The notes under the pieces are model-generated. The model was given only the letters and a program-made list of their open reading frames with translations, was not told the origin of the DNA and made no database searches. A DNA stretch of 46,375 nucleotides from sequence record NC_001901.1; one strand, 5' to 3'. Shown here piece by piece: positions 7,089 to 45,578 of this stretch (positions within the stretch are counted from its first letter, which is position 1; every line of letters begins with the position of its first letter). Made by a program: the position numbers and the translations under genes. Origin of the DNA: Escherichia phage N15.

Positions 7089-7523
7089 ATGACAGAGAAA
7101 GAAAAGCTGATTGCTCGGCTGAATGAACTTGGTACCCAGCTTAACCGCGAAGTCAGCACCAGCGGCACCATTCAGGAACTCACTATGCGTATTGCTGAGC
7201 TTGAAGAGGAGCTGGATGGAGACGCCACCTCGGTTGACGGCGAAAGCGGCGGGCAGAATGCTGCCGACAGCACCGACAGCACCGACAGCACCGACAGCAC
7301 CGACAGCACCGACAGCGATGTTGCTGATGTGGAAAAAGTAAAATCGGAAGCGGGTACAAATGGTGACCAGGTATCAGTAGAAACGCTGGCTACCCTGCAT
7401 GTTGAGGCACTACATGCCACGCGTAACGAACCGGTATCCATCGTTGAGCCCGGTGTGATTATCCGCGTATCCGAACAGGATGCAGACGAGCTGATCTCAA
7501 AGGGGCTGGCTCGCGAAGTCTGA
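7089..7523 (+). CDS. DNA packaging protein (lambda gpFI-like) with internal (TDS)n repeat
   Basis: RBS CTGGAG then ATG at 7089; LIARLNELGTQLNREVS and LHVEALHATRNEPV resemble lambda FI; longer ORF from 7053 lacks RBS. Confidence 0.75.
   Translation: MTEKEKLIARLNELGTQLNREVSTSGTIQELTMRIAELEEELDGDATSVDGESGGQNAADSTDSTDSTDSTDSTDSDVADVEKVKSEAGTNGDQVSVETLATLHVEALHATRNEPVSIVEPGVIIRVSEQDADELISKGLAREV
7266..7316 (+). repeat. tandem 9-bp repeat (gacagcacc) x5.7 encoding DSTDSTDSTDSTDSTDSD inside FI-like gene
   Basis: Direct reading of sequence; perfect tandem copies. Confidence 0.95.
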
Positions 7524-13227: not shown

Positions 13228-13979
13228 GTCTTAATGCTGATTATCAAAAACTTGAGCCGGGCAATGAAGTCCGGCTTTTTTCTGTCGATGGCACAGCGTT
13301 CGGTATGTCAGATGTACTCCGCTTTCACGCACATAACATCGCGCATACCCCGGAAGAGATTGAGGCTGCAGGCGGGGATGAGAATAAACTTCCGGCGAAG
13401 TCCATCTGGTGGCAGGGGGAGGAGTATAAAGCCTGGCCGTGTCAGGTTGAGGGTATTGAAGCGACCACGGACGGTACTAGTCCACAGCCAAAACTGACGG
13501 TGGCGAACCTCGACAGCTCTATCTCGGCGCTCTGTCTGGCGTATGACGATCTGCTGCAGGCGAAAGTCACTATCCATGACACGCTGGCGAAGTATCTGGA
13601 TGCCAGAAACTTTCCGCAGGGTAACCCCACCGCAGATCCGTCACAGGAAAAGCTGAAGGTCTTTTATATTGACGCCAGAAACACCGAGACGGATGAAGTG
13701 GTGGAATTTATCCTTTCCAGCCCGATGGATTTACAGGGCCGGATGATACCGACCCGGCAGCTGCATTCTCTGTGTTCCTGGTGCATCCGGAACAAATACC
13801 GAACCGGCGACGGCTGCGACTACGCCGGAACGCGCTATTTCGACAAGCACAATAACCCTGTTGACGATCCTTCGCTGGATGAATGCAACGGTACGCTGAC
13901 GGCCTGCAAGCTGCGTCATGGAGACAGCAACGAGCTGCCGTTCGGCGGTTTCCCCGGTACATCCCTTATCAGGAGCTGA
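13224..13979 (+). CDS. minor tail protein (lambda gpL-like)
   Basis: 251 aa, Cys-rich C-terminal cluster (CSWC...C...C), synteny. Confidence 0.8.
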   Translation: MSLNADYQKLEPGNEVRLFSVDGTAFGMSDVLRFHAHNIAHTPEEIEAAGGDENKLPAKSIWWQGEEYKAWPCQVEGIEATTDGTSPQPKLTVANLDSSISALCLAYDDLLQAKVTIHDTLAKYLDARNFPQGNPTADPSQEKLKVFYIDARNTETDEVVEFILSSPMDLQGRMIPTRQLHSLCSWCIRNKYRTGDGCDYAGTRYFDKHNNPVDDPSLDECNGTLTACKLRHGDSNELPFGGFPGTSLIRS

Positions 13980-22120: not shown

Positions 22121-23149
22121 CTATTTTTTCTCTTTATTTTTTATAATATTTTCCAACTTATCGAGGTCGCGATTAACCTGCTCAGCTGCACCTAATTCTG
22201 CCTCCAATAACGCTTCTATTTTTTTTATTAAATTAGAGGGTATTTTACGGCTATCTACTTTCAAAGTGACAAAACTACCCTTGTATTTAGCTACAACACC
22301 TTCACCATATTTCTTCTCGGTCTTGGGCATTTCTTCCTTATCGACAAGAATAAAGTCCTGTAGTGCCTGAATAATTCTTGCGGGCTCGAAATCCTCTCCA
22401 GCTTGCTTCATACGAAGCAACTGCTTCGCACCATCGAGCATAGTCTGCTCGTTACCCTTATACACTTTAGATAAAGCATCGCCAGCGCGAGCTGATAGCT
22501 CTCCCGGATGCTTGAAGATAGACAGGATCTCCCTCGGTAATCCGGCGGTATTCATGCAGCGGTTCACGATATTACGGTCGATGCCCTCTGCTTCAGCCAG
22601 GGCTTTAACGTTACCATCAAATTCTTTCAGTCGGCGCAAGTACCGTTTCCCGCGTTCGTATGCACTGGTTGGCCGATAGTCGTTACCCAACTGTGACAAC
22701 TGCTGCATTTGTTCATCATCCAGCTCTCCAACGAGAACCCGATAATCGCTACCAGTGATGATGGCTGTTTTGCGGCGGCGTGAGCCATCGGCAATTTCGA
22801 TAATGCCTGACGTCCTTCTGGCGAACGCGGGGTTCTGCTGTCCTGAAGTGAGGAATGAAGGGATAAGGTCGGCCAGCGCTGATTCGTTCAGCAATTCCTG
22901 ATCACGTTCATTACCGAGCCAAACCATTGTGGCCTTTTCGACTTTATCAGCAGGAATGGTTTCCAGCTTAAAAGTCACGTTGCGGCCGCAAACCGGTAGC
23001 GTAATGCTATTCCCGGACAACGAACTTAATTTGCTCTGTAAGTCGCCAACCATCGGCGAAACCGATGGCGCTTTTTGCGGCGCATTATGGTTATTGCTCA
23101 TGAACGTTTCGATGTTGGGCGCATTTTTTAATATAGAGCGATTCTTCAT
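22121..23149 (-). CDS. sopB: partition protein SopB (ParB family)
   Basis: ITLPVCGR, GNERDQELL, DLIPSF, GIIEIADGSRRRK, GELDDEQM, GNDYRPTSAYERG match F-plasmid SopB; ATG 23149 with GGGAGG RBS. Confidence 0.9.
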   Translation of the reverse strand: MKNRSILKNAPNIETFMSNNHNAPQKAPSVSPMVGDLQSKLSSLSGNSITLPVCGRNVTFKLETIPADKVEKATMVWLGNERDQELLNESALADLIPSFLTSGQQNPAFARRTSGIIEIADGSRRRKTAIITGSDYRVLVGELDDEQMQQLSQLGNDYRPTSAYERGKRYLRRLKEFDGNVKALAEAEGIDRNIVNRCMNTAGLPREILSIFKHPGELSARAGDALSKVYKGNEQTMLDGAKQLLRMKQAGEDFEPARIIQALQDFILVDKEEMPKTEKKYGEGVVAKYKGSFVTLKVDSRKIPSNLIKKIEALLEAELGAAEQVNRDLDKLENIIKNKEKK

Positions 23150-28246: not shown

Positions 28247-28411
28247 GGTATGCATTCCTATCTTGTATAGGGTGCTACCACCAGAGTTGAGAATCTCTAT
28301 AGGGGTGGTAGCCCAGACAGGGTTCTCAACACCGGTACAAGAAGAAACCGGCCCAACCGAAGTTGGCCCCATCTGAGCCACCATAATTCAGGTATGCGCA
28401 GATTTAACACA

Positions 28412-28489
28412 CAAAAAAACACGCTGGCGCGTGTTGTGCGCTTCTTGTCATTCGGGGTTGAGAGGCCCGGCTGCAGATTTTGCTGCAGC
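28412..28489 (-). ncRNA. candidate small regulatory RNA / attenuator leader: promoter (TTGACG-18-TAGAGT) followed about 75 nt later by intrinsic terminator
   Basis: -35 at 28525-28520, -10 at 28501-28496, hairpin aacacgc/gcgtgtt + U-run at 28435-28412 on - strand; N15 immA and P4/P1 immunity RNA paradigm. Confidence 0.45.
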
Positions 28490-28613
28490 GGGGTAACTCT
28501 ACCGCCAAAGCAGAACGCACGTCAATAATTTAGGTGGATATTTTACCCCGTGACCAGTCACGTGCACAGGTGTTTTTATAGTTTGCTTTACTGACTGATC
28601 AGAACCTGATCAG

Positions 28614-28964
28614 TTATTGGAGTCCGGTAATCTTATTGATGACCGCAGCCACCTTAGATGTTGTCTCAAACCCCATACGGCCACGAATGAGCCACTGGAA
28701 CGGAATAGTCAGCAGGTACAGCGGAACGAACCACAAACGGTTCAGACGCTGCCAGAACGTCGCATCACGACGTTCCATCCATTCGGTATTGTCGACGACC
28801 TGGTAAGCGTATTGTCCTGGCGTTTTTGCTGCTTCCGAGTAGCAATCCTCTTCACCACAAAGAAAGTTACTTATCTGCTTCCAGTTTTCGAACCCTTCTT
28901 CTTTGAGCCGCTTTTCCAGCTCATTCCTCCACAAAACAGGCACCCATCCTCTGCGATAAATCAT
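28614..28964 (-). CDS. hypothetical membrane protein (last gene of repA operon)
   Basis: RBS AAAGGA; hydrophobic C-terminal segment LWFVPLYLLTIPFQWLI. Confidence 0.5.
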   Translation of the reverse strand: MIYRRGWVPVLWRNELEKRLKEEGFENWKQISNFLCGEEDCYSEAAKTPGQYAYQVVDNTEWMERRDATFWQRLNRLWFVPLYLLTIPFQWLIRGRMGFETTSKVAAVINKITGLQ

Positions 28965-28966
28965 GA

Positions 28967-29296
28967 TTATTTGTCCTTTAAATAAGGCTGTAGAACTGCA
29001 AAATCGCTCTCGTTCACATGCTGTACGTAGATGCGTAGCAAATTGCCGTTCCATCCCTGTAATCCACCTTCTTTGGAAAGATCGTCCTTGACCTCACGAA
29101 GAACCTTATCCAATAGCCCTGCGGCACAAGAAATTGCCTGCTCTGGATCAGCAAATTCATATTGATTAATAGGTGATTGCCACACACCAAAAACAGGAAT
29201 CATCTTTTCGGCTAAACGCCTCTCCTGTTCTTTCTTAATCTCAAGTTGTAAGCGGACCAGCTCACCATCCATCATTTTTTGTAGATCATGCGCCAC
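28967..29296 (-). CDS. hypothetical protein
   Basis: Tightly packed with neighbours; RBS-like GGGGGTGA. Confidence 0.5.
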   Translation of the reverse strand: MAHDLQKMMDGELVRLQLEIKKEQERRLAEKMIPVFGVWQSPINQYEFADPEQAISCAAGLLDKVLREVKDDLSKEGGLQGWNGNLLRIYVQHVNESDFAVLQPYLKDK

Positions 29297-29299
29297 TAT

Positions 29300-29629
29300 T
29301 CACCCCCACTGGCCATCAGCAAATAAAGCTTCATACTCGGACACCGGCAGGCGGCTTCCACGGATTGAAAGGTCAAGCCAACCACGTCCAGATGGGTCAG
29401 CCTTATCCGATTCTTCCCACCGTTCTGCAGCTGTAGCAACCAGGCATTCTACCGCCTTCATGTAGTCTTCTGTACGGAACCAGCCGTAGTTAATGCCACC
29501 ATCAGTAACTGCCCAGGCCATCTTTTTCTCTTCGGCCTCAATAGCCCGGATGCGGTTATCGCACAGCTCGCGACAGTACTTCAGCTGTTCGTAATCCAGT
29601 TGCTTCAGGAACTCTGGTGTCGACGTCAT
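29300..29629 (-). CDS. hypothetical protein
   Basis: Tightly packed, AAGGTGA upstream. Confidence 0.5.
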   Translation of the reverse strand: MTSTPEFLKQLDYEQLKYCRELCDNRIRAIEAEEKKMAWAVTDGGINYGWFRTEDYMKAVECLVATAAERWEESDKADPSGRGWLDLSIRGSRLPVSEYEALFADGQWG

Positions 29630-29874
29630 AGTGGCTTCACCTTATAGGCTTTTAGAAGCGCCCTGGCTTCGTCTGTGTGGTCTTCCATGCTCTTATCGCT
29701 GGCAATGCAGCAATAAACTCCCTCACTATCTGAGAACCCGTTCATCCGAATGATCGTGAATGGAAGTTCCCGGCCAGTTTTATAATCGCTATAGCTTGTC
29801 GCGTCGTGGCTGACCTTGACCACATAAGGGTCGTAGCCCTCCACGATGACAAGGCATTCCCGTTGTTTTCCCAT
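29626..29874 (-). CDS. hypothetical protein (82 aa) immediately downstream of repA
   Basis: GGAGGGG RBS; ATG 11 nt after repA stop. Confidence 0.5.
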   Translation of the reverse strand: MGKQRECLVIVEGYDPYVVKVSHDATSYSDYKTGRELPFTIIRMNGFSDSEGVYCCIASDKSMEDHTDEARALLKAYKVKPL

Positions 29875-29885
29875 TACCCCTCCGG

Positions 29886-32800
29886 TTATATCGCCACGGC
29901 TTGCCGCTGGCTTAGAAACGCTTTCAGCAGCCTTATTTCGCGTACTGATAGCAGGTCCATAAATTCGGTCATGTACAGCGAGGCGAACGTTCTCGCGATG
30001 CTGGCCACTGGCCACAGGCGTACCGCCTCCATTTCGGTTGCTGGCAACGCGTTCTCCGCCCACGCCTCCGGTACCGCCACCGGGATAGCCTCCAGTGCCT
30101 GGATAATTACTGATTGTGGGGCGTCCGGAACGTGCTCTGTTTTGGATCGAGGGTTACCATGTATATCTATATTTAGATCCAAATCGCGATCCACTTCGAT
30201 GGTGGTTTTTTCCACCTTACGTGCGTGAATTGATAAACCGGCCTCGCGGCGCTTCTCCACGATATTCATGAGGAACTCGACCGAGTCCGGGTCAATGGAA
30301 CGCATCGTGGGGCGTGCATCGCCGTCTCTGGCGCGTCTGGTCTTACTGGATAGCCCCATAGACTCCAGGATGCCTATGCAGAGGTCTGCAGGCGCTTTCT
30401 TCTTGCCTTTCTCTGTGTTGAAGCCGCCGATGCGTAAAACGTTGTTTAGCAGATCGCGCCGTTCCGGCGTGAGCAGGTTATCTCTGGCGCGTTTGAGGGC
30501 GTCCATGTCTGCTTCACCTTCCAGGGTTTTTGGATCGATACCGCAGTCGCGGAAGTACTGCTGCAGCGTCGCCGATTTGAGGGTGTAGAAACCACGCATG
30601 CCTATCTCAACAGCAGGGGTCGATTTCACTCGGTAATCGGTTATGGCCGGGAATTTAGCCTGGAACTCTGCGTCGGCCTGTTCCCGCGTCATGGCCGTAG
30701 TGACGAACTGCTGCCATCTTCCGGCAACGCGATAAGCGTAGGTAAAGTGAATCAACGCTTCTTCACGGTCAAGGCGACGGGCGGTTATCTCATCCAGCTG
30801 CATGGTTTCAAACAGGCGCACTTTTTTCAGGCCGCCGTCGAAATAGAATTTTAACGCCACCTCGTCGACATCCAGCTGCAGCTCCTTTTCGATGTCCCAG
30901 CGGACCAGCTGGGCCTGCTCATCCAGGGACAGGGTGCGTTTTTTTATCAACTCATCGTGTTCGGCCTGGTCAGGAGTATCGACACTCAGGTGGCGCTCCA
31001 TAAGCTGCTCAAAGACCAGTTCACGGGCTTCTTTACGTAAATCCTTACCGATGCTGTTTGCAAGCGCGTCGGTGGCCATAGGCGCGACCTGATAGCCATC
31101 ATCATGCATGATGCAAATCATGTTGCTGGCATAATCATTTCTGGCCGATGCCTCGAGCGCGGCGGCTTTAATTTTGAGCTGCATGAATGAAGAGTTAGCC
31201 ACGCCGAGTGAAATTCGGTCACCGTCAAAGACAACGTCTGTCAGCAGCCCGGAGTGGCCAGCCGTTTCGAGCAAGGCCTGCGCGTAGGCGCGTTTGATTT
31301 TTTCCGGATCGGTTTCACGTTTACCGCGAAGCTTGTCGAAACCGATAATGTATTCCTGAGCTGTACGGTCGCGGCGCAGCATCTGGATGGCGTCGCTGGG
31401 GACCACTTCGCCGCAGAACATGCCGAAATGGCGGTGGAAGTGTTTCTCCTCAATCGATACACCTGAAGATATCGACGGGCTGTAGATGAGGCCGTCATAT
31501 TTTTTCACCATCACTTTAGGCTGGTTGGTGAAATCGTCGACTTCCTTCTCCTGTTTGTTTTTCTGGTTAACGCAGAGAAACTTTTTGTCAGGGAACTGTA
31601 GTCTCAGCTGCATGGTAACGTCTTCGGCGAACGTCGAACTGTCGGTGGCCAGCATGATTCGTTCGCCGCGTTGCACTGCAGCGATAACCTCGGTCATGAT
31701 CCGATTTTTCTCGGTATAAAATACGCGGATAGGCTTGTTGGTTTCGCGGTTGCGAACGTCGACCGGGAGTTCAATCACGTGAATTTGCAGCCAGGCAGGT
31801 AGGCCCAGCTCCTCGCGTCGCTTCATCGCCAGTTCAGCCAGGTCAACAAGCAGATCGTTGGCATCGGCATCCACCATAATGGCATGCTCTTCAGTACGCG
31901 CCAGCGCGTCGATAAGCGTGTTGAATACGCCTACCGGGTTTTCCATCGCACGCCCGGCCAGAATGGCACGCAGGCCCTGTGTTGCTTCATCGAAGCCGAA
32001 GAAGTCATGCTGGCGCATCAGCGGTTGCCAGCAGCCTTTAAGTATGGAGTTGATGCAAATAGTCAGCTTGTTGGCATATGGCGCCATTTCCTGATAGCCG
32101 GGATCCTGATAATGCAGAATGTCGGCTTTCGCGCCTTTCCCTTCGGTCATCATTTCATGCAGGCCGCCTATCAGGGATACGCGGTGCGCGACGGAAACGC
32201 CACGCGTGGACTGCAGCATCAGTGGACGCAGGAGGCCTGTCGATTTACCCGACCCCATCCCGGCGCGGACAATAACGATGCCCTGCAGCTGTGCGGCGTA
32301 TGTCATCACCTCATCGGTCATCCTGGAGGTTTCAAACCGTTTGTAAGTGATGTGTGACGGGCGAAGGTTCGGGTTGGTGATGCGTTCACTGAACGAACGT
32401 GATGTTTGCGCGGCACGGCATTTGCGATTCAACCGGCGCGTAATGTGATCTTTAACGGTACCGTTATAAATTTCTGCGATACCCATATCCCGCAGCGTGC
32501 TGCTGAAAAGGCGCATAAGTTCTTTCGGGCTGTTTGGTACCGGGCATGTCAGCATGCCAATATCAACGGCGCGAAGCAGTTCTTTGGCAAAAGTGCGTCT
32601 GTTCAGACGCGGGAGAGTACGCAGCTTATTCAGCGTGATCGACAACAGGTCGGTTGCACGGCTCAGATGATTTCTCGTTAACTGGCGAGCGACTTCCTTC
32701 AGCCCTCTCAGGCTGTGCAGGTCGTTAAAATCGCTGCATTCCAGCTCAGGGTCATCCTCAAAAGTTGGGTAAACACATTTGACGCCGGAAAACTTCTCCA

Positions 32801-33860
32801 TGATGTCGAATCCGGTGCGGAGGCCTGTGTTGCCTTTTCCTTCAGCTGAGGATTTGCGGTCGTTATCGAGAGCGCAAGTGATTTGCGCAGCCGGGTACAT
32901 GTTCACCAGCTGCTCGACAACGTGAATCATGTTGTTAGCGGAAACCGCAATGACTACCGCGTCAAAGCGTTTTTTCGGGTCGTTTCTGGTCGCCAGCCAG
33001 ATGGATGCCCCGGTGGCGAAACCCTCTGCAGTCGCAATTTTTTGCGCCCCCTGCAGGTCGCCAATAACAAAGCATGCACCGACGAAATCACCGTTAGTGA
33101 TGGCGCTGGTCTGGAACTTGCCACCATTCAGATCGATACGTTGCCAGCCAACAATCCGCCCGTCTTTTCTTCCGTCCAGGTGGGACAGAGGTATCGCCAT
33201 GTAAGTTGTTGGTCCACGGCTCCATTTCGCACTGTCGTGACTGGTCACGCGACGTATATCACAAGCGCCAAATACGTCACGAATTCCCTTTTTTACCGCA
33301 TAAGGCCAGGAGCCATCTTCAGCTGGCGAATGTTCCCAGGCGCGATGGAAAGCCAACCATCCAAGCAGGCGTTCCTGCTCCATCTGATTGTTTTTTAAAT
33401 CATTAACGCGTTGTTGTTCAGCTCGGAGGCGGCGTGCTTCAGCCTGGCGCTCCATGCGTGCACGTTCTTCTTCCGGCTGAGCGACCACGGTCGCACCATT
33501 CCGTTGCTGTTCACGGCGATACTCCGAAAACAGGAATGAAAAGCCACTCCAGGAGCCAGCGTCATGCGCTTTTTCAACGAAGTTAACGAAAGGATAACTG
33601 ATGCCATCCTTGCTCTGCTCAAGGCGTGAATAGATTTCCACACGGCCTTTAAGGCTCTTCTGCAGAGCTTCCGGGGAGGAATTATTGTAGGTGGTATAGC
33701 GCTCTACACCACCGCGCGGATTGAGCTGAATCTTATCAGCACACGCAGGCCAGTTGATACCGGCCATCTTCGCCAGCTCAGTCAGCTCATCACGTGCCGC
33801 GTCAAGCAGTGAAAACGGATCGCTGCCAAAGCGCTCCGCGTAGAATTCTTGTAAGGTCAT
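29886..33860 (-). CDS. repA: replication protein RepA, multidomain primase-helicase
   Basis: 1324 aa; Walker A GMGSGKST; size and position (downstream of cB) as N15 RepA. Confidence 0.9.
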   Translation of the reverse strand: MTLQEFYAERFGSDPFSLLDAARDELTELAKMAGINWPACADKIQLNPRGGVERYTTYNNSSPEALQKSLKGRVEIYSRLEQSKDGISYPFVNFVEKAHDAGSWSGFSFLFSEYRREQQRNGATVVAQPEEERARMERQAEARRLRAEQQRVNDLKNNQMEQERLLGWLAFHRAWEHSPAEDGSWPYAVKKGIRDVFGACDIRRVTSHDSAKWSRGPTTYMAIPLSHLDGRKDGRIVGWQRIDLNGGKFQTSAITNGDFVGACFVIGDLQGAQKIATAEGFATGASIWLATRNDPKKRFDAVVIAVSANNMIHVVEQLVNMYPAAQITCALDNDRKSSAEGKGNTGLRTGFDIMEKFSGVKCVYPTFEDDPELECSDFNDLHSLRGLKEVARQLTRNHLSRATDLLSITLNKLRTLPRLNRRTFAKELLRAVDIGMLTCPVPNSPKELMRLFSSTLRDMGIAEIYNGTVKDHITRRLNRKCRAAQTSRSFSERITNPNLRPSHITYKRFETSRMTDEVMTYAAQLQGIVIVRAGMGSGKSTGLLRPLMLQSTRGVSVAHRVSLIGGLHEMMTEGKGAKADILHYQDPGYQEMAPYANKLTICINSILKGCWQPLMRQHDFFGFDEATQGLRAILAGRAMENPVGVFNTLIDALARTEEHAIMVDADANDLLVDLAELAMKRREELGLPAWLQIHVIELPVDVRNRETNKPIRVFYTEKNRIMTEVIAAVQRGERIMLATDSSTFAEDVTMQLRLQFPDKKFLCVNQKNKQEKEVDDFTNQPKVMVKKYDGLIYSPSISSGVSIEEKHFHRHFGMFCGEVVPSDAIQMLRRDRTAQEYIIGFDKLRGKRETDPEKIKRAYAQALLETAGHSGLLTDVVFDGDRISLGVANSSFMQLKIKAAALEASARNDYASNMICIMHDDGYQVAPMATDALANSIGKDLRKEARELVFEQLMERHLSVDTPDQAEHDELIKKRTLSLDEQAQLVRWDIEKELQLDVDEVALKFYFDGGLKKVRLFETMQLDEITARRLDREEALIHFTYAYRVAGRWQQFVTTAMTREQADAEFQAKFPAITDYRVKSTPAVEIGMRGFYTLKSATLQQYFRDCGIDPKTLEGEADMDALKRARDNLLTPERRDLLNNVLRIGGFNTEKGKKKAPADLCIGILESMGLSSKTRRARDGDARPTMRSIDPDSVEFLMNIVEKRREAGLSIHARKVEKTTIEVDRDLDLNIDIHGNPRSKTEHVPDAPQSVIIQALEAIPVAVPEAWAENALPATEMEAVRLWPVASIARTFASLYMTEFMDLLSVREIRLLKAFLSQRQAVAI

Positions 33861-33975
33861 TTTTTAGCCTTTCCATGCGAATTAGCATTTTTTCGGGTTG
33901 AAAAAATCCGCAGGAGCAGCCACAATAAACGCACTATCTTTCTGAAGGACGTATCTGCGTTATCGTGGCTACTTC

Positions 33976-34013
33976 CTGAAAAAGGCCCGAGTTTGCCGAC
34001 TCGGGTTTTTTTT
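33976..34013. terminator. bidirectional terminator between cB and repA
   Basis: cccgagtttgccgactcggg hairpin flanked by A- and T-runs. Confidence 0.65.
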
Positions 34014-34078
34014 CGTCTTTTTTCGGCTGCTACGGTCTGGTTCAACCCCGACAAAGTATAGATCGGATTAAACCAGAA

Positions 34079-34094
34079 TTATAGTCAGCAATAA
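34079..34094. promoter_or_regulatory. palindromic site TTATAGTCAGCAATAA upstream of repA (operator candidate)
   Basis: Same TTAT(A/T)-N6-(T/A)ATAA architecture as the two sites in the cB-cro intergenic region. Confidence 0.4.
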
Positions 34095-34108
34095 ACCCTG
34101 TTATTGTA

Positions 34109-34717
34109 TCATCTACCCTCAACCATGAACGATTTGATCGTACCGACTACTTGGTGCACAAATTGAAGATCACTTTTATCATGGATAACCCGTTGAGAGT
34201 TAGCACTATCAAGGTAGTAATGCTGCTCGTCATAACGGGCTAATCGTTGAATTGTGATCTCGCCGTTATTATCACAAACCAGTACATCCTCACCCGGTAC
34301 AAGCGTAAGTGAAGAATCGACCAGGATAACGTCTCCCGGCTGGTAGTTTCGCTGAATCTGGTTCCCGACCGTCAGTGCGTAAACGGTGTTCCGTTGACTC
34401 ACGAACGGCAGGAATCGCTCTGTGTTGGCAGGTTCTCCAGGCTGCCAGTCTCTATCCGGTCCGGTCTCTGTCGTACCAATAACAGGAACGCGGTCTGGAT
34501 CAGATTCAGTGCCATACAGTATCCATTGCACGGGCTTACGCAGGCATTTTGCCAGCGATAGCCCGATCTCCAGCGACGGCATCACGTCGCCACGTTCTAA
34601 GTTTTGGACGCCCGGAAGAGAGATTCCTACAGCTTCTGCCACTTGCTTCAGCGTCAGTTTCAGCTCTAAACGGCGTGCTTTCAGTCGTTCGCCTCGTGTT
34701 TTCATACCCTTAATCAT
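34109..34717 (-). CDS. cB: CI-like prophage repressor (N-terminal HTH, C-terminal S24-like fold with catalytic dyad substituted)
   Basis: LTLKQVAEAVGISLPGVQNLERG HTH; C-terminal ..VGNQIQ..PGDVILVD...EITIQRL aligns to lambda CI/LexA but Ser and Lys are replaced. Confidence 0.85.
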   Translation of the reverse strand: MIKGMKTRGERLKARRLELKLTLKQVAEAVGISLPGVQNLERGDVMPSLEIGLSLAKCLRKPVQWILYGTESDPDRVPVIGTTETGPDRDWQPGEPANTERFLPFVSQRNTVYALTVGNQIQRNYQPGDVILVDSSLTLVPGEDVLVCDNNGEITIQRLARYDEQHYYLDSANSQRVIHDKSDLQFVHQVVGTIKSFMVEGR

Positions 34718-34728
34718 AAATGATCTCT

Positions 34729-34744
34729 TTATAGCTGGCTATAA
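34729..34744. promoter_or_regulatory. operator-like palindrome TTATAGCTGGCTATAA in cB-cro intergenic region
   Basis: 7-bp inverted arms read directly; between divergent cB and cro. Confidence 0.55.
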
Positions 34745-34777
34745 TTTTTATAAATTATACCTAGCTTTAATTTTCAC

Positions 34778-34793
34778 TTATTGATTATAATAA
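34778..34793. promoter_or_regulatory. operator-like palindrome TTATTGATTATAATAA just upstream of cro
   Basis: 5-bp inverted arms; same architecture as 34729 site. Confidence 0.45.
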
Positions 34794-34798
34794 TCCCC

Positions 34799-35014
34799 AT
34801 GAAACCCGAAGAACTTGTGCGCCATTTCGGCGATGTGGAAAAAGCAGCGGTTGGCGTGGGCGTGACACCCGGCGCAGTCTATCAATGGCTGCAAGCTGGG
34901 GAGATTCCACCTCTACGACAAAGCGATATAGAGGTCCGTACCGCGTACAAATTAAAGAGTGATTTCACCTCTCAGCGCATGGGTAAGGAAGGGCATAACA
35001 GTGGAACTAAATAG
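34799..35014 (+). CDS. cro: Cro-like repressor
   Basis: 71 aa, divergent from cB, HTH GVTPGAVYQWLQAG. Confidence 0.75.
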   Translation: MKPEELVRHFGDVEKAAVGVGVTPGAVYQWLQAGEIPPLRQSDIEVRTAYKLKSDFTSQRMGKEGHNSGTK

Positions 35015-35747
35015 CATTCGGGCCTGTGTATCTACGGCTCTGTCAGATATTCATTATCTCCAGCGCGGCATCCTTGAGGTCCAGCTGGAGCAGCTGCGTC
35101 TCGCAAGCTCTGACCGTTTCACTGACAAACCAACCAGAACGATCTGCATCGGCGATACGGAATCTTATGAAATCTCTGTGCCTGCCGAACCCGTTCGTTA
35201 TCACGTTGGTAAATCCTTCAAACGGTCTTCAATGCTGCTGACTGAATTAGATTTCATGACCGCCAGCTGGCGACGTGCCATTGAGCAGTTAAACAGTGAA
35301 GAAACTGCATGGTTGCATTATTGCTATGGATGCAAACCAAATTATAAGAATGATGTAACTGTTTGCCAGTGGCTGTGGATGGATTTTTTAATTGCGCATT
35401 CCAGAGCGGGCTTTAAAAAAATGAAAGCCCCAACAAAAAAAATTATGCAGAGATTAACTTACTACGGAATACAGCAAGTTAAATGTGAAATATTTCACGA
35501 ACTGCATGATTCGGATATTGATGGAATGGAGCGAGACGAACACATAAGTTCTTTAGTGGGTGTATCCGTCGAAAGCTGGCGTAAGGATTATAAAAAACGC
35601 TGGTTATTACTGAAATCACGATGCATGCATCTTAACGATACCGCGTTATTAAATGCGGCGGAGAAGCGCTGTGAAATCATCGAAAGCCATCGTGCAAGAA
35701 GTGCCGACCTGCCTGTGTCAGCAGGTTATGCTCAGGAAACCAGATAA
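35001..35747 (+). CDS. putative late-gene antiterminator (Q-like by position); start uncertain (GTG 35001 with AAGGAAGGG RBS, or ATG 34959)
   Basis: Position immediately after cro as in lambdoid phages; Cys cluster CYGC...C; no motif-level confirmation possible. Confidence 0.4.
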   Translation: MELNSIRACVSTALSDIHYLQRGILEVQLEQLRLASSDRFTDKPTRTICIGDTESYEISVPAEPVRYHVGKSFKRSSMLLTELDFMTASWRRAIEQLNSEETAWLHYCYGCKPNYKNDVTVCQWLWMDFLIAHSRAGFKKMKAPTKKIMQRLTYYGIQQVKCEIFHELHDSDIDGMERDEHISSLVGVSVESWRKDYKKRWLLLKSRCMHLNDTALLNAAEKRCEIIESHRARSADLPVSAGYAQETR

Positions 35748-35973
35748 GCCTGTACTCCGGTACTCTGGCCTCCGTAACGAGTACATCATCTGGTGCCCGA
35801 CATGCGGCTATCGGACTCTTCCTGACAGTAACAGGCAATCCGTAATTACTGAATGGTATTTATCAAATCAACCAGGCAACAAGCATATAGAAAATATCTG
35901 GCTCAAACGTTATCTGGAAATCAAAGAGGGTGCGACCTCGGTCGCACGAGATAATGAAGAATACTCCATTTAA
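35719..35973 (+). CDS. possible small protein with CPTC motif; contains centromere-like palindrome in its 3' end
   Basis: 85-aa ORF, weak RBS; coding status uncertain. Confidence 0.25.
   Translation, partial: QQVMLRKPDKPVLRYSGLRNEYIIWCPTCGYRTLPDSNRQSVITEWYLSNQPGNKHIENIWLKRYLEIKEGATSVARDNEEYSI
35930..35947. repeat. centromere-like palindrome GTGCGACCTCGGTCGCAC (SopB-binding site candidate)
   Basis: One of three copies of GTGCGACC-NN-GGTCGCAC in the window. Confidence 0.7.
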
Positions 35974-36157
35974 GCAAGGCCCCATGTCGCGCACTGATGC
36001 GGAAAATATTTCTGACCTTTATAAGAAAAAAGGTCATGAAGTAGTTATCGCAGAATCCATGAATTTAGATGGAACTTATTATGTTTACGTTACGCTACCT
36101 GAATTAAAGCAAGAGCCTAAGCCATCCAAAACCTTTCAACAAAGAATATGGGAGTAA
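35954..36157 (+). CDS. hypothetical small protein (alternative start 35984)
   Basis: ORF with AAGG RBS before 35984. Confidence 0.35.
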   Translation: MKNTPFKQGPMSRTDAENISDLYKKKGHEVVIAESMNLDGTYYVYVTLPELKQEPKPSKTFQQRIWE

Positions 36158-36159
36158 CA

Positions 36160-37074
36160 ATGGTAAATATCCAAAAAACGATTTTAGCGATGATTATGCA
36201 TAAATGGCTTAAGAGCGATTATGTTGTCATTGACACGGAAACAACAGGGCTGGGCGAATATGCTGAGATTATCGAAATTGCGATCATCAATATGCGCGGA
36301 GAAGTTTTGCTGGACACTTTGGTTAAACCGACCAAACCGATCCCTCCTGAAGTAACCGAAATAAACCACATCACAAACGAAATGGTCGCCAGTGCACCAG
36401 CGTGGTGTGATGTGTTCCCGAAGGTGCTGGCGATCATCAGTAAACACAAATGGCTGGCCTGGAATTCTGGTTTCGATGCTCGCATGCTGGAACAGACCTG
36501 CTTGAACACGATTTTTTTAAATAAAAATGCTTATTACGTGACCGCAATGGTTTCCCGTATTCACACGAGCCATATTGACGCTAAAGCAGTCTACGACACG
36601 TGGTACGGAGAGTACGATGCGAAGCACCAGGCTTTCAAGCGCCAGAGCCTGACAATCGCAGCTGCCCGACACGGTGTATTGCTGGAAGGAGCACACCGCG
36701 CTCTGGCCGACTGCAAAATGGTTCTGGCCGTACTGCAAAAAGTCTGCGCTCCCGTTCCTCAGATTGAAAGCTCTGTCGAGAAAGACCTGCCACCCTGCCC
36801 GTTCTGTTATGGGCCACCATCGTTGTTCACCCATTACCTGAATGACAAAGGCTATTCCCCTTTATATCAGCCCGTGAATTATGGCGATGATGGCCTGTAC
36901 GTAGGTTCGTATGTCTTTTGCCATGAATGCGGCGCACAGGGTGAAGAAGTAGGAGGCCACGCCTACGAAGATTCAGATGTAGAGCAGCTCGAAGCAGCAG
37001 CCAGGAATGTCTGGTCCGATCGCAACGAACGCCACCGCGACCTGTATACAGCCTCTCGAAACGTCGAAGAGTAA
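36160..37074 (+). CDS. DnaQ-like (DEDDh) 3'-5' exonuclease with C-terminal Cys-rich zinc-ribbon-like domain
   Basis: VVIDTETTGL (Exo I), WNSGFDARML (Exo II), HRALADC (Exo III); C-terminal CPFC...CHEC; RBS GGAG. Confidence 0.7.
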   Translation: MVNIQKTILAMIMHKWLKSDYVVIDTETTGLGEYAEIIEIAIINMRGEVLLDTLVKPTKPIPPEVTEINHITNEMVASAPAWCDVFPKVLAIISKHKWLAWNSGFDARMLEQTCLNTIFLNKNAYYVTAMVSRIHTSHIDAKAVYDTWYGEYDAKHQAFKRQSLTIAAARHGVLLEGAHRALADCKMVLAVLQKVCAPVPQIESSVEKDLPPCPFCYGPPSLFTHYLNDKGYSPLYQPVNYGDDGLYVGSYVFCHECGAQGEEVGGHAYEDSDVEQLEAAARNVWSDRNERHRDLYTASRNVEE

Positions 37075-37079
37075 GATGA

Positions 37080-37580
37080 ATGAACAGACTCAATCAAATC
37101 GCACTGGTGACAGCCATCACCAAAGAACTTAACCGACAAATTCCCGATTTACCCGCAGATGGACGGATGAACATAGTCATCAAAGCAGCCAACGATATCT
37201 GTGCTGAGTATTCCCGTGAACTGGTTGCCGCTTCTGCAGGTATGGGGTTGGAAGCATGGTTGAATAGCGACGACACCGGCAGCAGCAGCCTCTATTTGGC
37301 ATGGTGCTTGAGTCACGGCCAGTTTGGTTACTGGCAGGGACGCAAGCAGCCAGAGGTGGCTTATCCCCATGACCCAGATGATCTTGGGCGCTGCATTCGC
37401 CTGATAGAGGCAGTGCCTGAGTTCGGCGGCAAGATACCAGAGATGTCTCACCGTGGGCATGAGTGGCTGGCGGTAACAACCAATTGGGAACGGTGGGTTG
37501 AACTTTACGCCTGCGGTAAGGCCCGTGAACTCTATAGAGAAATGAAGGCTGCATATTTAAGAGGTAGCAGCGATGAGTAA
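37080..37580 (+). CDS. hypothetical protein
   Basis: 166-aa ORF, tight packing. Confidence 0.5.
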   Translation: MNRLNQIALVTAITKELNRQIPDLPADGRMNIVIKAANDICAEYSRELVAASAGMGLEAWLNSDDTGSSSLYLAWCLSHGQFGYWQGRKQPEVAYPHDPDDLGRCIRLIEAVPEFGGKIPEMSHRGHEWLAVTTNWERWVELYACGKARELYREMKAAYLRGSSDE

Positions 37581-38166
37581 ATCCCCTAAAGAAATGTATG
37601 CGGTCCCTGAGTGGATGCGTCAGTTCCTGCCGTTGTTTCAAAACACAGGGGGTAATGACGTCGAGGAGCTGCTGCACGATGAAGACACCAACATGTTTGC
37701 CAATAGCGTTCGCTACATGTTTATCGTGTCAGCGCGTTCTCAGTTTGCCTTGCTGATGGATATGTATAGCAAAGGCATCATCACTGGCAGAACTGGCGCA
37801 GAAGAAAGTTCCGACACACTAACCGATGGTCAATTACTTTTTCGCTTGCAGGACTTCTATGGCGCAGGACAAGACGCCATTGAGATTAACGATCATGAAT
37901 ATGCTCAGGAATGTACTGACGTTGTAAGCATCATTCGCGAGGTCATTGAATCACGGAAAAAACTGAAAGACGCAGAGAAGCGGATTGCTGAACTGGGTCG
38001 CAAGCCGACATGGATTAACCATTGTGACAAGACGGTTCCAGCTGCACTGCGATATTTAGCCGAGAATCCGCGACCGATTGGTGGAAGCTCGACTTATAAC
38101 ACCGAACATCTTTATGACCTGGCGCGTGAAATAGAAGTTACTGCCGGTACCACGAAAGGAGAGTGA
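37573..38166 (+). CDS. hypothetical protein
   Basis: 197-aa ORF overlapping neighbours by a few nt. Confidence 0.5.
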   Translation: MSKSPKEMYAVPEWMRQFLPLFQNTGGNDVEELLHDEDTNMFANSVRYMFIVSARSQFALLMDMYSKGIITGRTGAEESSDTLTDGQLLFRLQDFYGAGQDAIEINDHEYAQECTDVVSIIREVIESRKKLKDAEKRIAELGRKPTWINHCDKTVPAALRYLAENPRPIGGSSTYNTEHLYDLAREIEVTAGTTKGE

Positions 38167-38477
38167 GCATGGCTAACTTGCTCGACTTACTCGGCATCGA
38201 ATCCCGGCGCTGTAGCATGACGCTTGTTGAGTACAAATATGACCCGAATGAGAGGGAGCGACTTTCAAAGTATCTCGTCAGGCATACATCCAGCGTTAGC
38301 AAAACAACCCTAGAGCAATACGTCACCGTTGAGCGCGACCGTTATGGAGCATTCAAGCCTGTTGTCGCATTGGACGATTTTCCCAGCGGACTAAGCGACA
38401 GGGAATCAATGTTGAAACTGGCGGACTGGCTGCATCGCCTTGGCGTAGCGATTGAAGATGAATGGAGTAACCCATGA
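38163..38477 (+). CDS. hypothetical protein
   Basis: RBS AAGGAGAG; overlapping start/stop. Confidence 0.55.
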   Translation: MSMANLLDLLGIESRRCSMTLVEYKYDPNERERLSKYLVRHTSSVSKTTLEQYVTVERDRYGAFKPVVALDDFPSGLSDRESMLKLADWLHRLGVAIEDEWSNP

Positions 38478-38893
38478 TCACTATCACCAAAGAATGGCTG
38501 CAGAAGACCATCGCTGAATTTGAAACTAACTGCGACGATATTCCCTTTGGACTGGACGATGATGACGCGAAAATTCTGCAGGTTCTGAAATGGAAACTCG
38601 CATCGCTGGCCGTTGATACTTCTGCGGCTGGTATCGTCGACTACGGCGGCCCTTTATCACTTTCAGAGGAGTTTGTTTATACGTTTCGATCCTCGCGCTT
38701 AATCGCGTTGGGTGAGCCTGTGTATACCGTTCCACCTGCAAAGGATGTCCAGCAAGTAGCCGAACTGACAATGCTGGTTAAACGCTTAGCCTACTCCCTC
38801 AGACACGCTAAACCAGACAGTAAATTGCCCGATGATGCTATGTCCTATTTGAGCGGAAAGGGCCTGATTAGGATTGAGGATATTTTGCGATGA
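38474..38893 (+). CDS. hypothetical protein
   Basis: RBS GGAG; overlapping start/stop. Confidence 0.55.
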   Translation: MITITKEWLQKTIAEFETNCDDIPFGLDDDDAKILQVLKWKLASLAVDTSAAGIVDYGGPLSLSEEFVYTFRSSRLIALGEPVYTVPPAKDVQQVAELTMLVKRLAYSLRHAKPDSKLPDDAMSYLSGKGLIRIEDILR

Positions 38894-38945
38894 TCACCAC
38901 CAGAAAATGCATGCCGGCAGCGGCAGTATCACAGGAGACTAAGTG

Positions 38946-39272
38946 ATGGCACTGACACCCGCAGAACGGCAAAGGATCCGCCGAGAGAAGCTAAAAAAGC
39001 AAGGAACCACCAGGCGTGATTGGGTTCTGGAGCCGGATGAGCTGCGTATGCTCGGCGAAATTTGCATACAGCGTCGTCCGGGGCGAGAGCCGTATTCTGA
39101 AAATGAGGTTATTGGCCTCCTGATCCGCAAGAACTACAAAGAGCTGCAAAAGAAACTTTCCGGTTCGTGTTCGCGGTGTGGGAAGCAACTTCCGGTAGCC
39201 GATTGCCTGTTTGATGGCGAAGGTACATGCCAGCTGACCACTCTCAGATTGAAGCTGGCCATTAAAGCGTGA
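38946..39272 (+). CDS. hypothetical protein with C-terminal CxxC
   Basis: RBS AGGAG before ATG 38946. Confidence 0.5.
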   Translation: MALTPAERQRIRREKLKKQGTTRRDWVLEPDELRMLGEICIQRRPGREPYSENEVIGLLIRKNYKELQKKLSGSCSRCGKQLPVADCLFDGEGTCQLTTLRLKLAIKA

Positions 39273-39292
39273 CTGGTCACGGAGGGTTAAAA

Positions 39293-39514
39293 ATGGATAA
39301 AAAAGCATTGTTATTCGAACGCCTTCGGCAGAGAAGCGAAAGCAGTCTGGCCAGCGGAGGTGATGGGTTTATTTTTGCCTCAATGCTGGCGTTCGACATC
39401 GGTCTGAACACAAGAACGATCCGGGGGATGCTGGACTCTGCTGTGAAAAATGGAACCCTGGAAAAAAAAGAACGTGGAGCTGGCCGTGCACATAAGTACC
39501 GGACAATTCAGTAG
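39293..39514 (+). CDS. hypothetical protein (73 aa)
   Basis: RBS GGAGGG 5 nt before ATG; preceded by palindrome GTGACTGGTCAC. Confidence 0.5.
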   Translation: MDKKALLFERLRQRSESSLASGGDGFIFASMLAFDIGLNTRTIRGMLDSAVKNGTLEKKERGAGRAHKYRTIQ

Positions 39515-39579: not shown

Positions 39580-39603
39580 TATTAAATAACCTTGGTAGAC
39601 AAA

Positions 39604-39831
39604 ATGGTATACGATTCAATGACAGATGCAGCCGTGTCATGTTGTGAAAAACTTGATTCCCAGCTAAGCGATCTCGATGCTGTCCTGGATATGGTGAGCA
39701 CCGTTATGGCCTCACCAGAGGCCAGCCTTCATATGAATGAGGCGGCACGTCTTCTGCGCATGTCTCGTAATATGGTCCACAGATGCAAGGATGTTGTCGC
39801 GGATGAGCTCATTCGGCAGGCTGGCGAATAA
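39604..39831 (+). CDS. small protein (75 aa) under LexA box; candidate SOS-inducible antirepressor
   Basis: First ORF downstream of LexA box; N15 is reported to be induced via an SOS-regulated antirepressor, but assignment to this ORF is my inference. Confidence 0.4.
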   Translation: MVYDSMTDAAVSCCEKLDSQLSDLDAVLDMVSTVMASPEASLHMNEAARLLRMSRNMVHRCKDVVADELIRQAGE

Positions 39832-39866
39832 AAAAGGGAAAGGCGAGATACCCTCGCCTTTCCCTT
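39827..39866. terminator. bidirectional terminator (12-bp stem) between + strand small gene and - strand toxin-antitoxin operon
   Basis: gggaaaggcgag / ctcgcctttccc stem with A-run upstream. Confidence 0.65.
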
Positions 39867-41123: not shown

Positions 41124-41141
41124 GTGCGACCATGGTCGCAC
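41124..41141. repeat. centromere-like perfect palindrome GTGCGACCATGGTCGCAC
   Basis: Perfect 18-bp palindrome (20 bp with flanking C/G). Confidence 0.75.
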
Positions 41142-45560: not shown

Positions 45561-45578
45561 GTGCGACCACGGTCGCAC
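45561..45578. repeat. centromere-like palindrome GTGCGACCACGGTCGCAC
   Basis: Third copy of GTGCGACC-NN-GGTCGCAC. Confidence 0.7.

Follow-up and report, generated by a model that had tools for sequence, protein, structure and literature searches.

Several sets of short dispersed palindromes are known from Escherichia phage N15 and from its host, and they provide the frame for our analysis of a 14-bp palindrome, CGTGACTGGTCACG, in the 46,375-bp stretch of N15 DNA considered here at its full length (NC_001901.1; hereafter the window). The DNA of this linear plasmid-prophage matches GenBank U63085 (repA) and U63086 (telN/cA) at 100% identity and U45242 (cB/Q) at 99.5%. One copy of this palindrome lies over the stop codon of the early gene gp46, whose small product we regard as its most likely binder. 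The centromere sites IR1-4 of SopB, as given by the published oligonucleotides, read (T)GCGACC-NN-GGTCGC(A) (PMC7205306, Table 4), and SopB specificity discriminates single-base changes (PMC2910045). The CB/Cro operators are five 16-bp sites of the form T-A-(N)10-T-A, with OR1-3 between cB and cro and OL1-2 upstream of repA (PMC4997575). On the host side, matS, the 13-bp site of MatP, has the form GTGAC[AG]N[TC]GTCAC with a 3-bp spacer (PMC3603311, PMC8669397), and Bobay et al. found that prophages carry no matS at all (PMC3603311). As to the placement of an operator, LacI bound at O3 cuts the lacI mRNA short, and its product then receives an SsrA tag and is degraded (as cited from Abo et al. 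2000 in PMC3711431).

A search of the whole window found exactly three exact copies of CGTGACTGGTCACG (sites 1, 2 and 3; Table 1). At k=14 it is the only non-tandem word with at least three copies, and its observed count was reached in none of 100 shuffles (0/100). The likeness between the copies ends exactly at the 14-bp boundary, since their flanks are unrelated, and the lone half-site GTCACG is not enriched genome-wide (17 vs ~23 expected). An earlier, sequence-only reading of this DNA had noticed the identical 14-mer at two places, those of sites 1 and 3, and had judged two exact copies to be unlikely by chance. The exact word is indeed there, 1-2 bp away from the positions then given (28563-28549 for site 1 and 39270-39283 for site 3), but the copy inside repA had been missed and turned up when the motif was searched genome-wide. 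Two copies of some 14-mer are not rare in themselves, because the window holds 36 such words with exactly two positions; what speaks against chance is that this is the sole dispersed word with at least three copies, together with the shuffles.

The three sites lie at the same positions and in the same relative orientation in six relatives (MStein-2023a, phiKO2, KpLi5, 48ST307, PhiR46_1 and YDC107_1) that reach down to ~76% RepA identity and ~77% DNA identity, and every N15/phiKO2-type phage-plasmid that we examined has them at orthologous positions. Among the IMG/VR loci found via a gp46 homologue, site 3 keeps its place without exception (48/48), and the sites were also found in N15-like loci recovered independently through RepA. 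Over 83 unique contexts the arms GTGAC and GTCAC are unchanged and the two central bases, as well as the first and the last, vary. A pyrimidine invariably precedes GTGAC on its 5' side (C 149, T 17), which gives the site model Y-GTGAC-NN-GTCAC-R. The palindromic core proposed in the sequence-only reading is thus borne out by arms that are invariant across relatives. Symmetric invariant arms around a free centre are the conservation that would mark a cognate operator and, judged from these alignments, the pattern expected of a DNA site bound by a dimer.

Constraint on the DNA itself is seen at site 2. The 17-nt run TCGTGACTGGTCACGCG at this site is the longest invariant run in a 1.2-kb repA alignment of 38 unique sequences, and ACGTCACGAAT (Table 1) is the second-longest. 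In the same alignment TCGTGACTGGTCACGCG outlasts either arm of the functional SopB site IR1, of which the arms are invariant and the centre is not. The invariance of site 2 is not explained by protein constraint, because the RepA of phage PY54 carries a 4-amino-acid insertion at the position of the site-2 peptide (R-V-T-S-H), which is therefore a variable loop. Two loci with RepA proteins 55-60% identical (L071 and L117) have full palindromes at the site-2 codons despite amino-acid changes, and both have a further complete palindrome at the equivalent of ACGTCACGAAT, 32 bp from the site-2 equivalent (CGTGACGTGTCACG in L071). At site 1 the 23-bp spacing to the -35 element of the downstream promoter Pa is invariant in six divergent relatives, and the arms lengthen to 9 bp in PhiR46_1, MStein and YDC107. 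Overall, the palindrome is very probably a real, selected, protein-binding DNA site, as far as sequence conservation can tell.

The distribution of the motif points to a candidate binder. In the telomere-phage loci (RepA-based sample) the motif is present in every locus that has a gp46 homologue, and the 13 PY54-like or more distant loci have neither, so that site and regulator gene occur together across lineages and their presence/absence agreement is perfect. PY54 itself lacks both a gp46 homologue and the motif, and no palindrome precedes its gene for a homologue of the 73-amino-acid protein that N15 encodes next to site 3. Most telling is that the same association holds at much larger distances. 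A profile search of 1.8 billion representatives gave 89 hits, and distant gp46 relatives among them were inspected in their own genomes. The exact core GTGAC-NN-GTCAC lies over the homologue's own TGA stop codon in six further settings: an unclassified element from a sequencing-run assembly with a resolvase and toxin-antitoxin genes, the protein cluster of which includes Salmonella enterica (L061); a lambdoid prophage of Pantoea, in which the homologue lies beside int (L062); a nin region of lambdoid type that is widespread in Citrobacter, Enterobacter and E. coli (L065/66); a small contig of metagenomic origin, with a ribosome-binding site and an ATG again following the stop-codon palindrome (L069); Salmonella phage epsilon15, over its gp49; and the Yersinia P2-like phage vB_YenM_201.16. 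Two prophages have the palindrome within the gene's 3' part: a Mu-like one (L067), 27 nt ahead of the stop and again in its transposase gene, and a lambdoid one (L068), 113 nt ahead of the stop and again 24 nt upstream of where the Q gene starts. L063, the protein cluster of which includes a Serratia sequence, has a one-mismatch copy 3 nt past the stop. Vibrio phage K308 holds two exact copies within 7.6 kb and, like L067, L068 and L071, is thus among the loci with two. Altogether, 10 exact cores were found in 97 kb of the distant loci vs 0.09 expected. Aeromonas phage 85AhydR10PP (L137) has a variant, GTGACCGGACAC, at 230 and 2882 with shared flanks (tcaaaY...). After each copy an ATG follows at ~25 nt, in one case the start of the gp46 homologue itself; this may be a diverged type of site, with the operator in front of the gene instead of at its end. 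The hosts named for the family are gamma-proteobacterial without exception (Salmonella, Pantoea, Citrobacter, Enterobacter, E. coli, Serratia, Yersinia, Vibrio and Aeromonas).

Since these 10 exact cores stand in distant loci none of which has a homologue of the 73-amino-acid protein, the gp46-family gene and the palindrome form a mobile cassette that has moved among phages differing in replication, integration and packaging. The simplest reading of such a cassette would be a protein with its cognate site, and we consider gp46, with a probability of about 0.6, the most likely binder of the CGTGACTGGTCACG sites. The single shared DNA-binding regulator suggested in the sequence-only reading is strengthened in this respect, by arms invariant over ~60 related loci, by the constraint on repA DNA and by one protein family that tracks the motif. 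Its proposed binders (cB, Cro and the 73-amino-acid protein) fit poorly, and gp46, which was not among them, fits better by phyletic pattern.

What can be said of the gp46 protein is compatible with DNA binding. It belongs to phrog_536 in PHROGs ('transcriptional regulator'), and the annotation note of epsilon15 gp49 names N15 gp46. Its basic N-terminal helix is conserved (TPAERQRxRRxR); beyond it come two more helices, and a four-cysteine motif (CxxC...C...C) lies towards the C terminus. The segment pattern of strand, helix, turn and helix could correspond to a ribbon-helix-helix (RHH) protein. The operators of Arc, Mnt and CopG resemble the N15 site in being compact (12-14 bp), symmetric and readable as two inverted 7-bp units, and the candidate binder is likewise small. 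The omega heptad operators are comparable to a symmetric site made of inverted 7-bp units. Unlike RHH regulators, gp46 has the extra C-terminal four-cysteine motif, and its RHH membership is a possibility suggested by the sequence pattern.

Several observations weigh against gp46 as the binder or call for caution. The AlphaFold2 (AF2) model of the monomer is of low confidence (predicted local distance difference test score, pLDDT, 57), and a Foldseek search with it was uninformative. Sequence searches of Pfam, NCBIfam, PADLOC and PDB gave no significant match for gp46; the Pfam model RHH_1 touches only one of 26 family members (E=0.07), and the resemblances to the RpoN C-terminal domain, the TraR/DksA zinc finger and RHH_1 are weak and non-significant. 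Two gp46 homologues are without any site (L064 and L070, both on very short contigs), and neither L071 nor Vibrio phage K308 has a palindrome at the end of the homologue's gene. The loci within the N15-like phages are phylogenetically non-independent. The co-occurrence could also mean that the gp46 gene needs the palindrome as a cis element, or that a conserved host factor binds it. Finally, the centre of site 1, at about -66.5 relative to Pa, matches no classic activator or repressor position, and the regulatory outcomes outlined below for the three sites are pure inference.

If gp46 is the binder, the whole could work as follows; binding together with a roadblock or regulatory role carries the same rough probability of 0.6. 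A dimer, or a pair of dimers, of gp46 would bind Y-GTGAC-NN-GTCAC-R at the three N15 sites, each of which falls within an early transcription unit or at the end of one. As gp46 is encoded in the CB-repressed early-right operon, the protein would be expected to appear after infection or induction, and it would then hold back late-early read-through into the genes concerned, as a roadblock or repressor specific for this sequence. At site 3 it would curb transcription into the genes for the 73- and 79-amino-acid proteins, and the former is likely to be a regulated target of this site. Autoregulation through a non-stop mRNA and transfer-messenger RNA (tmRNA) tagging, as for LacI at O3, would also be possible, because RNA polymerase would halt before the stop codon is transcribed. 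At site 2, in the 5' third of repA, the palindrome and the flanking half-site would serve to damp repA expression. At site 1, gp46 would shield the antirepressor operon from read-through or modulate Pa.

The comparison with LacI and O3 holds in several respects: there is a palindromic operator at the 3' end of the presumed regulator's own gene, found so placed in N15 and in six other lineages, and its occupancy would halt RNA polymerase before the stop and shield the genes downstream. It differs in that the N15 palindrome sits on the stop codon itself and is kept there across many unrelated phages, and the gp46 family is unrelated to LacI. A palindrome repeatedly built on a TGA codon fits, by this analogy, an autoregulatory device. 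The pair would thus be a phage regulator with a palindromic operator, unusual in the stop-codon placement kept across phage families and in arms that match those of matS.

A possible alternative, although an unlikely one, is that some other factor or process uses the palindrome as a cis element, which accompanies the gp46 gene only as a passenger; it might be bound by a host protein, signal recombination or a module junction, or be related to the replication fork or to partition. gp46 is, after all, a candidate binder, and N15 does use dispersed sites, IR1-4, for its partition (PMC7205306). The SopB sites are similar in kind, being short palindromes with a 2-bp non-palindromic centre scattered along the right arm, and IR1 lies within repA like site 2, only 232 bp away from it. 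However, their sequence (GCGACC-NN-GGTCGC) and all four of their positions (Table 1) differ from those of CGTGACTGGTCACG, and we rejected an identity with the SopB centromere sites. The CB/Cro operators were rejected as well, the 14-mer differing from them in length, sequence and locations, as were the RepA ori iterons, the annotated repeats in repA being GATCCAAATCG-like and unrelated. The three sites do flank the internal ori (~30.14-30.20 kb), and their centres have a mirrored orientation (site 1 on the minus strand, sites 2 and 3 on the plus strand), but this is little informative with three sites only and a centre that varies among relatives. The recurrence of the tight gene-site cassette in lambdoid, Mu-like, P2-like and epsilon15-like phages, which differ in replication and segregation, favours a self-contained pair of protein and site.

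Improbable, in our view, is a broader proposal that keeps gp46 and gives the cassette a purpose beyond the regulation of transcription. Here gp46 and its stop-codon palindrome, a mimic of host matS shorter by one base, would form a widespread and self-contained cassette of gamma-proteobacterial temperate phages that organises or positions phage or prophage DNA, or interferes with the MatP/MukBEF/ZapB system of Ter organisation, and the three N15 copies would bracket the ori and immunity region as a structural domain.

Binding by the 73-amino-acid protein, which would autoregulate from site 3 and act at sites 1 and 2, is improbable. The start codon of its gene is only 11 nt from the end of site 3, next to the ribosome-binding site GGAGGG; the sequence-only reading had likewise placed this copy just upstream of the ribosome-binding site. 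Its AF2 model is confident (pLDDT 91.7) and predicts a winged-helix topology, and its top Foldseek matches are winged-helix DNA-binding regulators, the best full-length one being PefI (template modelling scores 0.71/0.73). The distribution of the protein nevertheless departs from that of the motif in both directions. Its homologues (the one of PY54 47% identical, those outside PY54 with hidden Markov model (HMM) E-values of 1e-12 to 1e-20) are kept in 11 of the 13 PY54-like or other telomere-phage loci that lack the motif, with no alternative palindrome upstream; conversely, no homologue was detected by HMM in any of the 10 distant motif-bearing loci tested. A profile scan of the contigs with the alignment of this family found two close relatives only, and the family is confined to telomere phages, which the motif is not.

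The occupation of these short matS-like sites by host MatP, which would tether or organise the linear plasmid prophage (for example at mid-cell via ZapB, or by unloading MukBEF), is very improbable. In its favour, the half-sites GTGAC/GTCAC are identical to the arms of matS, both sites have two-fold symmetry and occur as a few dispersed copies on a replicon, N15 is a low-copy plasmid that needs positioning, and the named hosts are all gamma-proteobacteria. On the other hand, the spacer is 2 bp in 62 unique contexts and 3 bp in none, a 13-bp matS was found nowhere in the window, and prophages are reported to be free of matS (PMC3603311). By definition the sites are not matS, and binding by MatP is unlikely. 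Moreover, the motif follows the phage gene rather than the host, since the Yersinia phage PY54 lacks it. A phage-encoded homologue of MatP was rejected too, because the comparison of the gp46 profile with E. coli MatP (the sequence checked against PDB 4d8j) gave an hhalign probability of 0.1%.

That the motif works as RNA, be it a hairpin, a terminator or a translational operator, can be given next to no weight: sites 1 and 3 read the same way along local transcription, share G-rich/AAAAT flanks, and site 3 abuts a ribosome-binding site, but a 2-nt loop is sterically impossible, which leaves a stem of 4-5 bp at best, minimum free energy folds form the palindrome inconsistently with insignificant z-scores at sites 2 and 3, the copy inside repA is antisense to that gene, arms strictly two-fold symmetric about a free centre are the signature of a DNA-binding dimer, and an intrinsic terminator or structured RNA element was rejected for lack of a consistent fold, of a T-run and of a terminator call at any of the three sites.

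If gp46 does bind CGTGACTGGTCACG, N15 would hold a regulator-operator pair that has gone unnoticed at the antirepressor promoter region, in the replication gene and at the gp46-73-amino-acid gene junction of the early-right operon end. The RefSeq record of phiKO2, in which LexA and telRL sites, partition sites, promoters and terminators are annotated, has no feature at the three sites, and a full-text literature search outside the original N15 and phiKO2 genome papers returned nothing relevant on the sequence or on a matS-like phage motif. Well-studied phages carry the same cassette, among them epsilon15, SPN1S and P2-like, Mu-like and lambdoid prophages, and in their annotations the gene is still 'hypothetical'. 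An operator on the stop codon of its own regulator gene would, if confirmed, be a compact and portable device for autoregulation and polarity, and the identity of the arms with host matS raises the question of cross-talk with chromosome organisation. For N15-based linear vectors, the cis element inside repA is one that engineers should heed.

Table 1. Coordinates of the palindrome copies and of other features in the N15 window (RBS, ribosome-binding site; ORF, open reading frame; aa, amino acids).
Feature	Position	Strand	Basis or remark
Site 1, CGTGACTGGTCACG	28549-28562	-	between the end of the repA operon (ORF 28614-29054) and Pa of the isrK/C4/antirepressor operon
Site 2, CGTGACTGGTCACG	33236-33249	+	inside repA, antisense to the gene, codons ~204-209
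Site 3, CGTGACTGGTCACG	39268-39281	+	overlaps last codon and TGA stop of gp46; abuts RBS of the 73-aa gene
Invariant 11-mer ACGTCACGAAT	33274-33284	+	holds one half-site GTCACG, 27 bp from site 2
gp46 gene	38946-39272	+	108 aa; RBS GGAGA upstream of ATG 38946; ORF listed from GTG 38943 (109 aa)
73-aa winged-helix protein gene	39293-39514	+	directly downstream of site 3; ATG at 39293
79-aa ORF	39592-39831		two genes downstream of site 3; PHROG phrog_10889 'anti-repressor', E=1e-8
Promoter Pa	28496-28525	-	-35 TTGACG (28525-28520), 18-nt spacer, -10 TAGAGT (28501-28496); sigma-70-like
isrK-type Hfq-binding RNA	28414-28489	-	Rfam, 62 bits
C4 antisense RNA	28301-28388	-	Rfam, 79 bits; after isrK, downstream of Pa
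Antirepressor operon	27.06-28.4 kb	-	ORF map
Last gene of the repA operon	28614-29054	-	ORF map
repA	29886-33860	-	ORF map
Annotated ori repeats	~30137-30198		in repA
cB	34109-34717	-	ORF map
cro/Q and early-right operon	from 34.8 kb		ORF map
sopBA	22.1-24.4 kb		ORF map
telN	24.95-26.9 kb		ORF map
SopB IR1	33481-33494		inside repA
SopB IR2	35932-35945
SopB IR3	41126-41139
SopB IR4	45563-45576

The surroundings of site 1 agree with the description in the sequence-only reading, which had placed this copy just upstream of the -35 of an antirepressor/small-RNA promoter: it is 23 bp from TTGACG, and the isrK and C4 RNAs follow. The Rfam match to isrK starts exactly at the predicted +1 of Pa, position 28489. 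Because isrK and then the C4 RNA were both matched downstream of Pa, the leader of the N15 secondary-immunity region joins two RNA families known from Gifsy-type and P1/P7-type systems. Sites 1 and 3 both precede antirepressor-type genes, since the 79-amino-acid ORF matches phrog_10889. Transcriptionally just upstream of site 1, the self-complementary octamer CTGATCAG occurs twice, 3 nt apart (CTGATCAGGTTCTGATCAG, 28594-28612), and this pair is mostly kept in the alignment of relatives. In folds of the N15 RNA, the upstream GATCAGTCA can pair with TGACTGGTC of site 1 (z = -2.7), a pairing that is not kept in PhiR46_1.

A degenerate copy of the palindrome with two arm mismatches, CGCGACTGGTAACG, is present at 13903 (-) in L006 and at 22414 (+) in L010, and also ~975 bp downstream of site 3 in ~20 IMG/VR loci. 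In this PhiR46_1/YDC107-type subgroup it falls among the toxin-antitoxin genes, and it may either act as a weak site or merely reflect shared ancestry. In the record of YDC107_1 (L010) and in several IMG/VR contigs (among them L017/L018, L030/L035 and L053) repA, the antirepressor operon and the protelomerase gene are found twice, in inverted orientation. These doubled plasmid-arm records, which raise the apparent motif counts, have the look of head-to-head dimers or of artefacts from assembly at the telomere.

As to centromeres, PY54 has ~10 dispersed palindromes of the F type (TGGGACC-NN-GGTCCCA, at positions that include 508, 6566, 26513, 31240, 34394, 40976 and 44409) vs the four IRs of N15, and no second dispersed palindrome family was found in it. 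Downstream of the 79-amino-acid ORF, a perfect hairpin with a 15-bp stem (AAGGGAAAGGCGAGG...CCTCGCCTTTCCCTT) and a T-run (39834-39866) probably serves as a terminator in both directions, separating the early-right operon from the convergent toxin-antitoxin genes, and its 12-mer AAGGGAAAGGCG recurs at 32132. The sole other highly repeated word in the window is the 9-bp unit CCGACAGCA, present in ~5.5 tandem copies at 7264-7313 in the left (structural) arm.

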